A DNA stretch of 64,000 nucleotides from Octopus vulgaris (lineage: Eukaryota): the NCBI GenBank assembly GCA_951406725.2, contig OX597816.1:55428001-55492000 (forward strand). The letters are read 5' to 3'. The position numbers and the translations under genes are program-made. Of the stretch, positions 523 to 62,127 are shown in pieces. The notes under the pieces were generated by a model, which worked only from the letters and a program-made list of their open reading frames with translations, was not told the DNA's origin and did not search any database. The number at the start of each line of letters is the position of its first letter. Position 1 is the stretch's first letter.

Positions 523-690
523 ATGTATGTACGTATGTATGTATATATGTATGTATGAATGTATGTATGAATGTATGTATGTATGTATGTATGTATGTAT
601 GTATGTATGTATGTATGTATGTATGTATGTATGCATATGTGCGTCTTTGTATTTCTGTACGGGTGTGTGTGCACGCGGGCGGGCGTGCTT
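523..690. repeat. (TATG)n / (TG)n compound microsatellite
   Basis: Directly visible tandem repeats; source of the spurious MYVC/HTYI ORFs. Confidence 0.95.
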
Positions 691-904
691 GCGTCTATGT
701 GTGTGTATCTCACTAGAGGAAGCGAAATACACAAAAAGAGAAATGGAGGAAATGAAACATTAAAAATGCAGAGAGATATCAGTAATAAAGGAAATGTAAT
801 TGAGATATAATAGAGATTAAGAAGAAAAGGTTACGAGTAAAAATAAAGTTTCTGATGGATTGACAAGCGCCATGAGGTTTAAAGGAAACAAAATTGGATA
901 AAAC

Positions 905-942
<38 letters not shown>

Positions 943-1131
943 AGAGTATTGTAGAGGCTACATGCGTAGGAAAGACAAGAATTACAGAGAAATATAAAAA
1001 TATATTATACACAAACATATATATATATGTGTATACGCGAGGCTATATATTGTCATACATGGATATACCTTCATACGTATTTATATATATATATATGTAT
1101 ATGTATATTCATGTATATATATGTGTGTGTG

Positions 1132-14108: not shown

Positions 14109-14238
14109 TTATCTATCTATCTATCAATCTATCTAATTAGCTATATATCTATTTATCTATCTATCCGGCTATCTATCAATCTATCTAATTAGCTATCTAT
14201 CTATTTATCTATCTATCCGGCTATCTATCAATCTATTT
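13906..14238. repeat. (TA)n then interrupted (TATC)n microsatellite
   Basis: Directly visible, with repeated CCGG and AATTAG interruptions. Confidence 0.95.
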
Positions 14239-14677
14239 AGTGGGAGATTGGAACGCTACCCTAGACATACATCTATACTACGTGGGCAGAGATAGTAACA
14301 GGAGGGGATGCTAATACCTCAAAGACCTGCTCAGACATTTCCAAATGTCTGACAGGTACCGACTGGACTACTCGAGTGTGCCAATGTGGGCGTGGAGCAA
14401 ACGCATCGGGTCGTCTGGATCGTACATACATAGAGTATTCTATAGGAGAGTGGGTAAGGGTAGTGTAGGTTGTTCACAATTCCATATAGTCAGCTACACA
14501 GACCACTAATTGTACACTTGACTTAGATAAGACACAAAAGCAGGGTCCCGGTTACTGGAAGGTGAACGCGTCGTTCACGGCACGCCAGGTGTACAGAGAC
14601 CGGATTAGCAAATTAGTTAAGAGTGCGTTGCGAGTCACGAAACCACTTTGAGCATGATCCTGTAAATTGAAAAGAGG

Positions 14678-23665: not shown

Positions 23666-23732
23666 GTATGTATGTATGTATGTATGTATGTATGTATGCA
23701 TGCATGTATGTATGTATGTATGTATGTATGTA

Positions 23733-24340
23733 TCTGGTGGACGCGTCTGAAAGGATTAGAGACAAACACTTTCCTCTCTGGTCAATCTCTCATCAACTTC
23801 TTCAAGTATCACTTGAAGAAAAAAGTGAGAGTAGAGAGGCAAGTTTTGTCTAGTGAATGTTTTAAAAAAAGATGGGTGAATGTAGCAAGGATGGCACGTA
23901 TGAATGACGAAGCCACCTTGACTATGATTCTATGAACCGTAAAAATTAATACAGAGAGTTGCTTATTTGCAAAAAAAAAAAAAAGAAATATAACATGTGA
24001 CTTCATTGACCGATGTTACCGTGGTCTTTTCCGTAGGCTTTTCTTTCCATGGGTAAACCTCACCTGTCCTCCCCTTTACACTTCATATTGACATTTCTGT
24101 GATAACGATCCCTATTGATCAATTTCCCCCCCCTTTTTTTAACCCCCCTTTTTTTGTCCTCTTTCTCTCCTTTTACGATCCCTTTTGATCGCCCCCCTTT
24201 TTTATTTTATTTTATTTTTTATTTTATTATTATTATTATTATTATTTTTTTTTTTTTTTTTTTTTAAACCTTCAAAAGAAAAGCTCTACCTTGTAATTTG
24301 TTCTATCTGTGTGCAGCCCTGTGTGGCTAATAAAGAAACA
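23733..24340 (+). mobile_element. L1/Tx1-like LINE 3' end (ORF2 C-terminus plus 3' UTR)
   Basis: IWWTRLKGLETNTFLSGQSLINFFKYHLKKKVRVER...F.KRW. Pyrimidine-rich UTR ending AATAAAGAAACA directly before (TATC)n. Homologous to 14760-15010. Confidence 0.75.
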
Positions 24341-28514: not shown

Positions 28515-28995
28515 ACTGTTTCTCTCCGTGTCTGCCGAGAATGGATCTCAAAGTAAGGGCAGTATTCTTAAAGGCGACGAGCTGGCAGAATCGCTAGCAC
28601 GCCGGTCGAAATGCGTAGCCGTATTTCGTCTGTCGCACATGTGTTCGTGGTAAAAATTGCTGTTTCTTTGTGTTAATATTGTTAATATCTGCTGTTTCTA
28701 ATAACTGTTGTTTCTTGTTAAATTGTTCGGGGTCGATTAAGTACCAGTTACGCATTGGTTAGTCCGTTTGTCTGTCCTTGTTTGTCTCAGCTGTGTTTAG
28801 CCACTTGTGGGTAATAAAGAAACAAGTATTCTTAGACGCGGAGGGCAGGTTGGTCGTCTTAGATGTCGATTGCAGTAATGGCTGTGCTCTCCGACTGATA
28901 ACGTTATTCGCACCGTCCTTAACAGGATTTCTTCCGACGTCTAGAGGTTTTCCTGGGAACTTCTCCACCTTTACTTTTAGTAGGGGATTGGAACA
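28515..28995 (+). mobile_element. L1/Tx1-like endonuclease fragment split by a SINE
   Basis: Removing the SINE gives MDLKVRAVFLDAEGRLVVLDVDCSNGCALRLITLFAP, followed by a GDWN-like motif. Confidence 0.7.
28571..28824 (+). mobile_element. Family C SINE with a replaced interior
   Basis: Family C head and tail; 10-bp TSD AGTATTCTTA at 28561-28570 and 28825-28834. Confidence 0.85.
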
Positions 28996-29329
28996 ATATT
29001 ATTTTTCATCTTTATTTACTTTATATTTGTCTGTTAGGTGTTTTGGTAGTTTATGAATTTTTAGTCGTGTATATTTAACTTTTTGATAGGCCGTTCATTT
29101 TGATTTTATTCGATTATTCGATTATATACTTTTACCTTCTGTGATTTTATGTATATGTATTATTTTTTTATGTGGTTGAAAACCATGGTAAGTTTTATAT
29201 ATGATTAAATTTTTGAGTGGTGGTGCTGTATGTAAAGTTGTTGACCCAAATTTAAAGTTTGTTCTATAACCAATGCTTCTTCATACACATATGGATATAT
29301 CTGTGTATATATATGTACATACATGTATG

Positions 29330-32985: not shown

Positions 32986-33049
32986 GTCATTGTGAAAATT
33001 ACTTAATACAGTTTTTAAGTATAAGGGTTCTTTTTTTAGAAAAAAACAG

Positions 33050-33400
33050 TGGATGTATTCCACTGAATTTAGGTAAATAATCCTTCGAACAGTCGATCAG
33101 CAGCGACGCCTGCTGGGTTCGGTTACTCCACATTGATAAGAGGCAACCACCTTGAAACTAACTGTGGTTGCCATATCAGCAAGGGGAAGCTACTGACCTC
33201 CCCTGTTCAAAGGTTATAATGGTCACAGGTTTTTGTGTCACATAGCTAGCTAGAGGCGATGGCCTCTTGGAGCTAATCAACGGCAGAATTCGTCCTATTT
33301 TTCTGGATTGCCATGTGAGCTTGGCGATAACTATTAATATCAATAAGTAATTAATCATTTGGGAAGTCGATTTTTCCTAGTGTGTGTGAGCGCTTTCGAT
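33050..33400 (-). repeat. Interspersed hairpin-containing repeat related to 60581-60825
   Basis: Internal stem TGATA.GAGGCAACCAC/GTGGTTGCC.ATATCA. The inverse complement shares CCTTT..ACAGGGGAG, CTA.G.GACACA and GTC.CTGCT.ATC with 60581-60825. Lies between TA-rich tracts. Confidence 0.55.
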
Positions 33401-40399: not shown

Positions 40400-41062
40400 T
40401 GATAAGTAGCATTCGGTGAGTAACAGTGTTTGATGTCCGTGCCCTTTGAGTTATTGAGCAAGGTGACCCACCTAGTCAAGACCTGGCCTTGGCGATGGCT
40501 ATCCTTGAAAGGGAGGGTGGAGGTGGCCAATGTGTTTATCGCATCGGTCATCGTTTACCACCGAACCGTCGTTCCTTGCCATGATTTGTGGTTAATCAAA
40601 CTGGAAAGGCAGCTCTTTCGCTTCTTGTGGAGGAACTCGAAACCGCTTATTAAACGCTCTATTTGCAGACAAAAACCGTTAAAGGGTTGACTAGGGATGC
40701 CTTGGCTGTTGATGCGCAGACATGCGCTGAGGTTGAGGCATCAGAGGCTCTACCTGGTTTGTGAACGGGTGTGATCTCCGCTTGCGAAACAAATGTTTCC
40801 CAGGTTTAATAGTTTTAGTGGACGGGAAACTCGGTTCTATCGTAGATCGATTCTGAGTACATTGTTTATGGAGTGCCGTAAGGGTCTCCTGCTATTCCGT
40901 CGATCGTTAATGCCAGCGGTGGTAGTTCAGCCGCATCTTTCTATAGAGGGATGGTAGAGTCGGCATGTGACGATACTTTAAGGGAAACCCTTGGTTTCGG
41001 TGATAATCAGTTGGCCAGTCTGTTCTAACGTACATTCGCGCCGAAGAACCTGGTTAACTTGA
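40400..41062 (+). mobile_element. L1/Tx1-like LINE post-RT fragment
   Basis: W.WRWLSLKGRVEVANVFIASVIVY...LERQLFRFLW...KG*LGMP (LS..GR / F.FLW / GGLG.P motifs). Confidence 0.85.
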
Positions 41063-41066
41063 GATG

Positions 41067-41393: not shown

Positions 41394-41444
<51 letters not shown>

Positions 41445-41446
<2 letters not shown>

Positions 41447-43452
41447 CAATAATAAATCTCTGAACGAGGTATAAACAGTAGTTGCAACACATCGTGAAGT
41501 ATATTTGCCACTTGAATGTGGCTAACTCCTAAGGGTGGATGCTACTCTAGCTTCTCTTTTTTTATGAAGTATAAATTTTACTTATTTTTAAAAGTTCATA
41601 AAGGGTTCCAAACCTTCTAATTCCACGACCGGTGGCAGCTCGTCAAACTCGACTTCAACCCCCAGCGGGTCTATGAAAAGTTCATACATCTCTCTTAATT
41701 TCAAATATCTCTCTTTATCTATGACTCTTCCGTTAGTGTTTTCGGCTATTTTCCTGGCAGCATCTTTACTCTTATTACCGATTTAAATTTTACAATCGTT
41801 TCTCTATTTCTTTACTTTTGGAATATGTGACCAAATGCCACTTTTATCTCTTCCTTCCTTTTCACTTCTGCTTGCTTCGGGTCCCGTCCCGATCTGTTTA
41901 GGCGTGCAGAAACATCCCAACCAATTTTATGAACGCTTCCTTTTTATCCCTGTTGTAATGCTGTTTTTTCCTGTGTGCCTTCTTTCACCACTGCTTCTGT
42001 TGGTGCTTCACACCTATCTCTCTTTTCTTCTATCACAATCTACTTTAGCCTTTTTTGACTACCTGGGGGAGAATTCACTTGTACCTTTCTCTTCCTCGTG
42101 TTTACTACTGTGAAGGGTTCCTCCACTCCGTGTGTCTCTTTCGTTGGTACTACCTCTTCGGTATTTTTCTTCATTTTTCTTCTCCTCTTCGTTTTCCTTC
42201 TCGGGACATCTTGCTTTTCTTCCGCCTAGGAAGCATGTTGGTGGTCTTCCTTTCGACTATTATTCGAAGTCTACCGTCTTCCGGGAGTATTATTTCCTCC
42301 GTTATACTATGCAAGTCTTTCAAAGATACCTGCATAGTCACTTCAAGGCTGTATCCCCACAAATTGGACTTTAGGGTCCTCGTCATCTTGAGGATCTCTA
42401 CTCCATCCTTCATATCGTGCATTATATCTGCTACCAGCCATTCTTCCTCGATTTCGGGGGCTATTCTTCCAACTTACACTCTGGCTGCGCATTTGCCACA
42501 GTACGTCGGAAGTAGTATCCATTTCGTTGTCCGAAACGGCCGCGTGGAGTGGTTCATTGCATCTTCTTCGTTGCTAAACCTTACTTCCATTAAGCCATAC
42601 TTCTTTTCACGTGTATAGAACGTGGTAAAATTTTTCACATTTTCGAGGCATTCCTCTATTTCTTCTGTTGGGGCTACCTCTATCTTGTTCGAGGACGTAG
42701 ATAACGTTCTGTATACTACCGTCCTTTTTTCTATGCTTTTCATCAGTTCTTCGGGGGGGGGGGGTATCAGCTTTGGACTAGTTGCTTACTCTTTCACAAA
42801 TTTTCTTCCTTCCTTCTTCTGTCTTTTGTCCGTTTCTATTTCTTTCAATTCCAGGGTGTTGGTATTTATTCCTTGTGTCATTGCCGCTGCGTGACTTTGC
42901 CTATTCTCCATCTTTCTTCAATCCTCCCGTAGACAGGGATTATACAGGTGCAAACGAAGCAGTGATTGAAATTCAATAATCTACACAATCCAACGAATCT
43001 TGGTTCTCAGGTGCGGGAAGCCTATAACAAACATACAATATCAGTGAGTAACAATTTGAAAACACATCGAAGAAATCACAACCTACCCCCGTAGGTGACA
43101 ATCGCGAGTAGTCGATGAAAAGCAGGCCTCCCTTTGCAAATATATATCCTTTTTCTGGTGAAAAAAAGTCACTGATATCGAAAAAGTGTAAACAATAAAT
43201 AATAAATCTCTGAGCGAGTTATAAACAGTAGCTGCAATACATCGTGAAGTATAATTGCCTCTTAAATATGGCTAAACCGAAGGATGGATGCTACTGTAGC
43301 TGGTAGTCCCAGGAGGACACCTCCTCCAGCTGGGTTTTGGCACACTTACTGTGTGTCAATAGCCAGCTGGAAGGAGGTGTCCTCCTGGGGCTACAAGCTA
43401 CAGTGGCATCCACCCTTAGGGATTAGCCACAAAATTATGTTCCAAATATACT

Positions 43453-43458
<6 letters not shown>
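41445..43458 (-). mobile_element. ~2-kb RT-less element: single gag/ORF1-like gene, terminal direct repeats and a ~210-nt terminal hairpin, between (TA)n tracts
   Basis: Direct repeat 41448-41552 vs 43198-43301; hairpin 43244-43456 centred near 43348; (TA)n on both sides. Confidence 0.8.
41589..42911 (-). pseudogene. Decayed ORF1/gag-like nucleic-acid-binding protein (~440 codons)
   Basis: Starts MENRQSHAAAM (SYAAA-like), then an RRM-like region (KYGLMEVRFSNEEDA; VGRIAPEIEEEWLV), a degenerate zinc knuckle after a frameshift (GRPPTCFLGGRKARCP), a Lys/Glu-rich tail and ...ELPPVVELEGLEPFMNF*. Several stops and frameshifts. Confidence 0.7.
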
Positions 43459-43522
<64 letters not shown>

Positions 43523-61974: not shown

Positions 61975-62110
61975 ACAAGTGCGGCGTCCTGTACTGGTCA
62001 GTGCTACTTACGTTTATAGCACTGTCCAGTATAGGACGCCACACCTGGCTGGTAATTATATGTTACGATTCCGTATTACTGCTGTTTATATCTCGCTCAG
62101 AGATTTAATA
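61975..62110 (+). repeat. Solo hairpin plus terminal motif related to the 41445-43458 element
   Basis: 28-bp imperfect stem 61979-62006/62017-62044, then CTGCTGTTTATATCTCGCTCAGAGATTTA, the inverse complement of 43203-43231. Confidence 0.7.
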
Positions 62111-62127
62111 CAGTATATATATATATA

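Follow-up and report, generated by a model that had tools for sequence, protein, structure and literature searches.

Introduction

LINEs that insert into another transposon and are accompanied there by non-autonomous followers have been described in two vertebrate groups, namely Tx1L in Tx1D of Xenopus and Tx1-Mar/SINEU in Mariner-N4_AMi of crocodilians, and for SINEU-3 hitchhiking was raised as a possibility to test (PMC4494074, in excerpt). Mammalian HAL1 (half-L1) elements are non-autonomous and encode ORF1p only, as stated in excerpts of PMC5753468. Metazoan non-LTR retrozymes carry a type I hammerhead in a non-coding, tandemly repeated monomer of 150-450 bp and are linked to Penelope elements (excerpts of PMC7229834 and bioRxiv 10.64898/2026.07.22.740005). 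Insertions of Penelope elements themselves typically show a partial tandem (pseudo-LTR), an inverted 5′-truncated copy, a tail at one end and a bias for (TA)n, according to the excerpted parts of PMC8557442 and PMC4209133. Finally, in the Terminons of bdelloid rotifers, ORFs are chained with hammerhead-bearing 3′ folds in head-to-tail arrays (PMC6431247, in excerpt).

The window analysed here is a 64,000-nt stretch of Octopus vulgaris DNA. Its segment 41445-43458 was read in an initial annotation as one unclassified retroelement that is primed or circularised through a terminal hairpin. The locus is two nested elements and not one: an ORF1-only LINE derivative lies inside a hammerhead retrozyme. 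Probably, an ORF1-only element of L1/Tx1 type was placed 5′ of the retrozyme hammerhead by the ORF2 protein of full-length LINEs, and such composites were recopied into (TA)n by a Penelope-type RT.

Layout of the window locus

The nested elements are read on the minus strand and are bordered at both ends by microsatellites without strand, (TA)15 at the right flank (43457..43487), the (TA)n target of the Penelope-type insertion, and (AT)24 at the left flank (41396..41443), likewise an (AT)n target. Next to the right flank, the outer hairpin arm (43351..43456, plus strand) is an inverted, 5′-truncated copy of the retrozyme tail, 84% identical to a natural empty retrozyme. All further features are on the minus strand. 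The inner arm, a pLTR-like repeat (43195..43353), is the upstream retrozyme tail in sense orientation. It is followed by the retrozyme linker (43110..43194), which is the outer portion of the 5′ arm of a rod with the hammerhead at its tip, and by the left copy of a target-site duplication of about 15 bp (43095..43109), a word found 3 nt before the hammerhead core in empty copies. The ORF1-only element then starts with its 5′ UTR (42912..43094); other copies begin at the same word. The decayed L1/Tx1-type ORF1 (41588..42911) comprises a ferredoxin/RRM-like domain, a CCHC knuckle, a charged linker and a small C-terminal domain; the start of its 3′ UTR (41551..41587) stops at a 483-bp deletion, beyond which lies a remnant of the downstream retrozyme tail, the distal direct repeat (41445..41550).

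The features first noticed at this locus were confirmed. The hairpin at 43244-43456 folded at -139.6 kcal/mol (z = -16.5; 0/200 shuffles as good), with arms 79% identical across 224 nt (E 1e-44), and the direct repeat (41448-41552 versus 43198-43301) was 87.6% identical across 105 nt (E 5e-31). The decayed ORF of about 440 codons and the (TA)n flanks at both ends were likewise found as described. This ORF runs on the minus strand from an ATG at 42911 to a stop at 41588 (about 441 codons), with several stops and frameshifts and a damaged knuckle. Over the approximately 62 nt common to the repeats, the distal copy agreed with the outer arm at 51/62 positions, the inner with the outer arm at 47/63 and the inner arm with the distal copy at 50/61. 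The distal copy had been said to match the outer arm even better than the inner arm does, which is correct, but the edge is small.

Compared with locus L003, the window copy carries a deletion of 483 bp that removed the rest of the 3′ UTR, the right duplication and the hammerhead. Because of this deletion the distal repeat stands directly after the stop codon, an arrangement rightly reported for the window copy but foreign to other copies, in which the stop is followed by a 3′ UTR of about 300 bp, the target duplication, the hammerhead and a longer tail. The UTR ends there in ATAATAAAGAGAAA; then come the word of about 15 bp that is also found directly 5′ of the element, the hammerhead core, and the tail ending in (TA)n. 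A search of the window element against Rfam returned chance matches to miRNA hairpins alone, as the hammerhead is deleted in this copy, and a miRNA reading of the hairpin was rejected because these matches were due to chance.

Related sequences were seen elsewhere in the window. An empty family-3 hammerhead retrozyme near (AT)n occupies 33045-33340 (+) and is 88% identical to the target of the ORF2 LINEs, and a tail fragment of retrozyme family 1b at 62017-62112 (+) ends at (TA)n. Fragments of L1/Tx1-type ORF2 were found at 40448-41064 (+), 14210-14630, 23729-23902 and 28817-29011; the first of these shares 69% identity with an intact copy and, on the opposite strand, terminates at the (AT)n to the left of the element.

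Host repeat

Measured from core to core, the retrozyme monomer is 357 bp long (locus L144) and non-coding, and partial tandems of it were found in loci L135-L154. An exact-pattern search gave 53 empty sites versus 15 distinct filled ones, and 0 with a reversed-pattern control. Among 20 empty loci, an inverted arm lay upstream in 11 and (TA)n downstream in 12. The repeats that the initial annotation had taken for the ends of a single element thus normally occur without the ORF, inverted arm included, and they belong to a separate retrozyme.

Against the Rfam model Hammerhead_1 (RF00163), the motif scored 20.5 bits (E 0.01), below the gathering score of 34. Scanning the collected loci for the motif yielded 45 distinct hammerhead hits, in which the helix I pairs covary between families and helix III is short and palindromic. 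The host repeat fits a non-LTR retrozyme with a type I hammerhead motif, a predicted ribozyme. Families 1/1b, 2 and 3 of this retrozyme gave no mutual blastn alignment; the same fold, a rod of 50-60 bp that ends in the hammerhead, was predicted for families 1, 2 and 3. Family 2 was empty in 22/25 copies and family 3 in 23/25. In most of the copies seen of the family-3 hammerhead (L161, L163, L165, L221, L286-L308) the core reads TTGATAA instead of CTGATGA.

No RT or GIY-YIG ORF was present in the window element or in empty retrozyme copies. Judged by its inverted 5′ copy, partial tandem, tail and microsatellite target, the host repeat appears to be a non-autonomous Penelope-like derivative. 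The initial annotation was right about the Penelope-like character of the ends, and also in having the unit mobilised in trans into (TA)n. Since the ends fit a retrozyme and the Penelope layout, the hairpin is an ordinary by-product of Penelope-type insertion, that is, the usual inverted 5′-truncated copy, and the role in priming or circularisation proposed for it was abandoned. The suggested resemblance to the ITR/ICR layout of DIRS elements also fell away: there is no RT/RH/YR ORF, and among the 30 loci of the window element's family the inverted arm is upstream in 13 and absent in 17, with lengths that vary from copy to copy.

For family 1, an autonomous Penelope partner sharing its DNA was found in 0/30 GIY-YIG loci, among 6136 candidates, and no GIY-YIG/RT frame lay upstream of 50 copies of families 2 and 3. 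The genome contains many GIY-YIG elements with 781-aa frames. In L209, L214 and their kin, a young Penelope-like family of this kind, the 3′ UTR carries tandem repeats, and no hammerhead core was found in it. In four runs, presumed to be RNA, contigs covered both retrozyme and ORF element parts. Three of the contigs join the linker to the target without the ORF element and one returns from the tail to the target; they are uninformative on level, strand and circularity.

ORF1-only element

A search of the same genome with the window element gave 3637 candidates, of which the best 40 were scored and 30 fetched, the long matches in these 30 copies being 78-88% identical to the query. The 30 loci are referred to as family A, the ORF1-only family of the window element. 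A zinc knuckle was matched by Pfam in a natural ORF1 copy, with nothing significant in the window's ORF pieces. Over its core, ORF1 shares 36-42% identity with its counterpart in intact APE-RT LINEs from the same genome. A structure model of ORF1 (pLDDT 68.6) contained a ferredoxin/RRM-like domain, for which RRM matches were weak (E 0.007-0.02) and ferredoxin-like fold matches reached a best Z of 7.6, within the range called common by the tool; Foldseek gave no match to the model at E < 0.001, and the fold searches barely covered the C-terminal domain. No match to ORF1 was found among the structures or Pfam models of L1 ORF1p. Named homologues were Octopus proteins only, and a profile search gave 575 unnamed proteins at E < 1e-10. 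With the weak fold matches and the Pfam zinc knuckle, the earlier description of a non-autonomous, ORF1-only element with an RRM-like fold and a CCHC knuckle was upheld.

The majority frame of the 30 copies was stop-free over 349 codons. Variants common to at least four copies had an omega of 0.52, compared with 1.07 for private variants (p = 0.005), as expected under the purifying selection that the initial annotation had proposed to look for. Because omega was lower in the shared than in the private variants, source copies must have retained a functional ORF1.

At the same site lie other ORF1-only families, whose identity to family A is 27-37%; in L065, L069 and L070 they form arrays in which neighbours are separated by a single duplication. 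No ORF2 was found downstream of family-E loci (0/29). A tree was built from 29 ORF1 cores (32 tried, 3 too short) with a midpoint root and one long branch. In it, 12 of the 13 ORF1-only rows from hammerhead sites formed one branch (98/96) that excludes ORF1 of the ORF2-bearing targeting LINEs; the thirteenth row grouped with these LINEs. Young relatives of family E, likewise ORF1-only, differ in their 3′ end and occupy targets other than hammerheads, so the ORF1-only lineage extends beyond the hammerhead target. Young ORF1-only arrays with 457-aa frames and a spacing of about 1.8 kb were also seen in L263-L266, L269 and L271-L275, at non-hammerhead targets that other LINEs also use, and their 3′ end is a different one; going by these arrays, ORF1-only lineages may swap tails and partners.

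By its sequence, the middle of the window locus is a HAL1-like, ORF1-only element of L1/Tx1 type that has a target duplication of 15 bp. In its mode of action it resembles HAL1, but we do not class it as HAL1 proper, since it does not derive from mammalian L1.

ORF2-bearing partner LINEs

In the relatives L110 and L115, ORF2 contains APE, RT and zf-RVT domains (Pfam), and its best relative among solved structures was human L1 ORF2p (E 3.6e-67). Copies that target the hammerhead are 41-60% identical to ORF2 of the L110/L115 type and were broken or truncated in all 14 loci examined. In L124, which is among the 15 filled sites, the insert carries an ORF2 C-terminus, and L201 is a near full-length, broken copy with ORF1 and ORF2 at a family-1 site. 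The combination of an APE-RT-zinc finger ORF2 with an RRM-like/CCHC ORF1 suggests a Tx1-type partner LINE, a label that we take from architecture and habit. A homologue search with the hammerhead-targeting ORF2 gave one unnamed match, and for this reason no clade name is used. At their 3′ ends, ORF1-only and ORF2 elements resemble each other in no more than a short motif.

Other target habits were seen among the collected LINEs. L106-L109 are head-to-tail arrays of intact 5.3-kb LINEs with a 1130-aa ORF2, followed in L107 by ORF1-only elements. In L098, an ORF2 LINE has its 3′ end 17 nt upstream of the ATG of an open frame (664-1038, minus strand) that we take to be histone H2B; this is perhaps a histone-targeting family. 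In L112 and L117, copies of an intact LINE family share one insertion point within an abundant SINE-like repeat and have a duplication of about 15 bp, and the upstream flanks of L005 and L007 consist of an abundant SINE-like repeat whose tail resembles the 3′ end of these LINEs.

Probable targeting of the hammerhead 5′ arm

Insertion sites were tallied in three samples, with the best 40-150 candidates scored in each case. For family A, read by eye, 21 of 22 readable 3′ ends lay at the retrozyme site (8/30 loci unreadable); the exception, L015, is at an unrelated site flanked by a 14-bp duplication of its own. Family E and its kin, collected by a protein-only search, were readable in 27/30 loci: 18 ended before a hammerhead core according to a script and 3 more by eye, 4/27 lay at other sites with duplications (L238, L254, L256, L258) and 2/27 were unclear. 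In L260 and L270 the 'core' flagged by the script is stem, the true family-3 core lying about 12 nt further. For the ORF2-bearing family, 30 loci were retrieved with the LINE-only DNA of L124 and 11/30 were unreadable; 14 of the 19 readable ends were at hammerhead targets and 5/19 elsewhere, whereas more than 20% of flanks is taken as target specificity in excerpts of PMC4494074. The share of ends at hammerheads is inflated by passenger copying. The duplications at the off-target copies (L015, L238, L254, L256, L258) identify these as LINE-type insertions, and on and off target the duplications measured 14-22 bp.

Insertions occupy the 5′ arm of the rod in sense orientation, the first base of the target lying about 17-32 nt ahead of the core, and the targets are several different words in three non-aligning retrozyme families (1/1b, 2, 3). 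Through the duplication the 5′ strand of helix I is present a second time, which leaves the downstream ribozyme whole, and the passenger would lie within the cleavage-to-cleavage unit of this predicted ribozyme. Arrays of different families with single duplications between them (those named above and L280) imply that one site was hit repeatedly. By eye, the nick positions showed no consensus. The proposal that nicks fall exactly at one internal loop failed in some registers and was rejected. Either the core or the fold may serve as the cue for the LINE enzyme, as may an annealed read-through RNA.

Probable recopying of composites

If direct insertion were the only route, truncated copies would be expected to retain both linker and duplication on the 5′ side. 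No 5′-truncated family-A copy examined does so at its 5′ junction, and in L027, L047 and L132 an inverted tail is directly joined to a 5′-truncated LINE. The inverted arm of L017 holds the end of ORF1, the UTR, the duplication, the hammerhead and the tail. With the adjacent sense copy this arm has 5/12 minority variants and one private word in common, the next-best sharing being at most 3 variants among the other 37 copies (best in the same array). In L189/L283, an ORF2 LINE is duplicated head to head (about 9 kb), and each end bears the same family-2 tail; this tail is longer at one end, and both arms end in retrozyme tail before AT-rich DNA. These junctions suggest that composite RNA was copied by a Penelope-type RT. 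The window copy itself may have arisen by direct insertion or by passenger copying.

A competing account accepts the targeting as real but attributes the LINE-containing inverted arms, and the truncated copies without a 5′ flank, to DNA deletion, fold-back duplication or arm conversion. Palindromes can homogenise their own arms, deletions are common in these loci (the window copy, L004, L012), and the whole-arm identity of L017 is not outstanding, at 89.7% to its neighbour and 90.5% to the best other copies. We nevertheless consider events at the DNA level an unlikely source, because not one of the truncated family-A copies examined keeps linker and duplication, three loci join the inverted tail straight to the truncated LINE, and the extra tail at only one end in L189/L283 is the layout described for Penelope-like elements in excerpts of PMC8557442.

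Discussion

The favoured sequence of targeted insertion and Penelope-type recopying can be set out in five steps. The host retrozyme is an independent repeat of about 357 nt whose type I hammerhead motif sits at the end of a 50-60-bp rod. ORF1-only families and ORF2 LINEs with a similar 3′ end occupy the 5′ arm of this rod, where they also form tandem arrays. At this site ORF2p of the LINE would nick and reverse-transcribe the ORF1-only RNA in trans. The duplication, visible in the sequence, would restore the 5′ strand of helix I. Lastly, to judge from the junctions, a Penelope-type RT would copy the composite RNA from the tail, giving 5′-truncated and inverted copies in (TA)n. The window copy has decayed since then and lost its 483 bp. 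Counted against this explanation were that no Penelope partner was found in the 30 GIY-YIG loci or upstream of the 50 family-2/3 copies, that the Rfam hit was below the gathering score, that the ORF2 copies were broken or truncated, that the 3′ likeness was short, that the nick showed no consensus and that the L017 arm was no closer overall to its neighbour than to the best other copies.

It could also be argued that the LINEs insert anywhere, without targeting, and that a few which happened to land inside a retrozyme were amplified as passengers. Passenger copying is evident and off-target copies exist (5/19, at least 4/27 and 1/22), yet such untargeted insertion is very improbable in view of the different target words in three non-aligning families, always in sense orientation and in the same arm, and of the arrays L065, L069, L070 and L280 that require repeated hits at one site. 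That the locus is a single self-priming or circularising retroelement after all, or a Terminon-like Penelope derivative with one ORF capture, has little left to recommend it: the composite indeed enters (TA)n as one unit, the inverted arm is upstream in 13/30 family-A loci and 12/13 ORF1-only hammerhead rows form one branch, but the ends occur mostly without the ORF, the ORF part has duplications of its own, also away from the repeats (L015), and ORF2 LINEs fill the same site (L124).

Beyond targeted insertion and recopying as set out above, a bolder version can tentatively be proposed. The LINE lineage may read the hammerhead rod itself, as an extruded DNA hairpin or through the core at a distance, and not the sequence, and could thereby colonise any retrozyme family with the ORF1-only lineage riding along; this would amount to three tiers of parasitism and two RNA routes, with the host ribozyme excising the passenger transcript. 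Should targeting follow the fold and not the sequence, it would be a new mode of site choice for APE endonucleases, with relevance to targeted gene insertion. Retrozymes with passengers of 2-5 kb and Penelope-type junctions provide direct genomic support for movement by Penelope RT, until now argued from phylogeny. With several old ORF1-only families under selection, it also becomes testable outside mammals what ORF1p gains without ORF2. In addition, such composites confuse repeat libraries, as they resemble elements with terminal repeats.

Target-specific Tx1-type LINEs, half-L1s and retrozymes are already known as ingredients. In the literature searched, with Repbase and most subscription papers outside it, no paper on LINEs targeting hammerheads or retrozymes was found, and in the main text of a 2026 octopus repeat annotation (PMC13282606) the words hammerhead, retrozyme, nested and ORF1 do not occur. 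LINE families of this kind, targeting hammerheads across unrelated repeats, may be recorded in Repbase or in such papers.

With Tx1L and SINEU, as excerpted from PMC4494074, the octopus system has in common a Tx1-type LINE with non-autonomous followers in another transposon, a duplication of about 16 bp there, and tandem copies that sandwich one duplication. It differs in that the target is a ribozyme-bearing retroelement, represented by several families without alignable DNA, that the follower codes for ORF1 and is not a SINE, and that the host probably copies its passenger through RNA. Like HAL1, the follower is non-autonomous with ORF1p only; here the lineage is invertebrate and of L1/Tx1 type, site-specific and without a poly(A) tail, with families 27-37% identical. 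The host repeat agrees with metazoan retrozymes in hammerhead type, monomer size, lack of coding capacity, tandem arrangement and the link to Penelope, the octopus copies being mostly partial tandems with inverted arms and LINE passengers of 1.8-5 kb. Its likeness to the Penelope layout includes the short palindromic helix III, in this case with no RT or GIY-YIG ORF. ORFs and hammerhead folds in head-to-tail arrays are shared with Terminons, a reading that was rejected for the octopus loci, which are non-telomeric, have no Athena RT and form their arrays at a duplicated target word.
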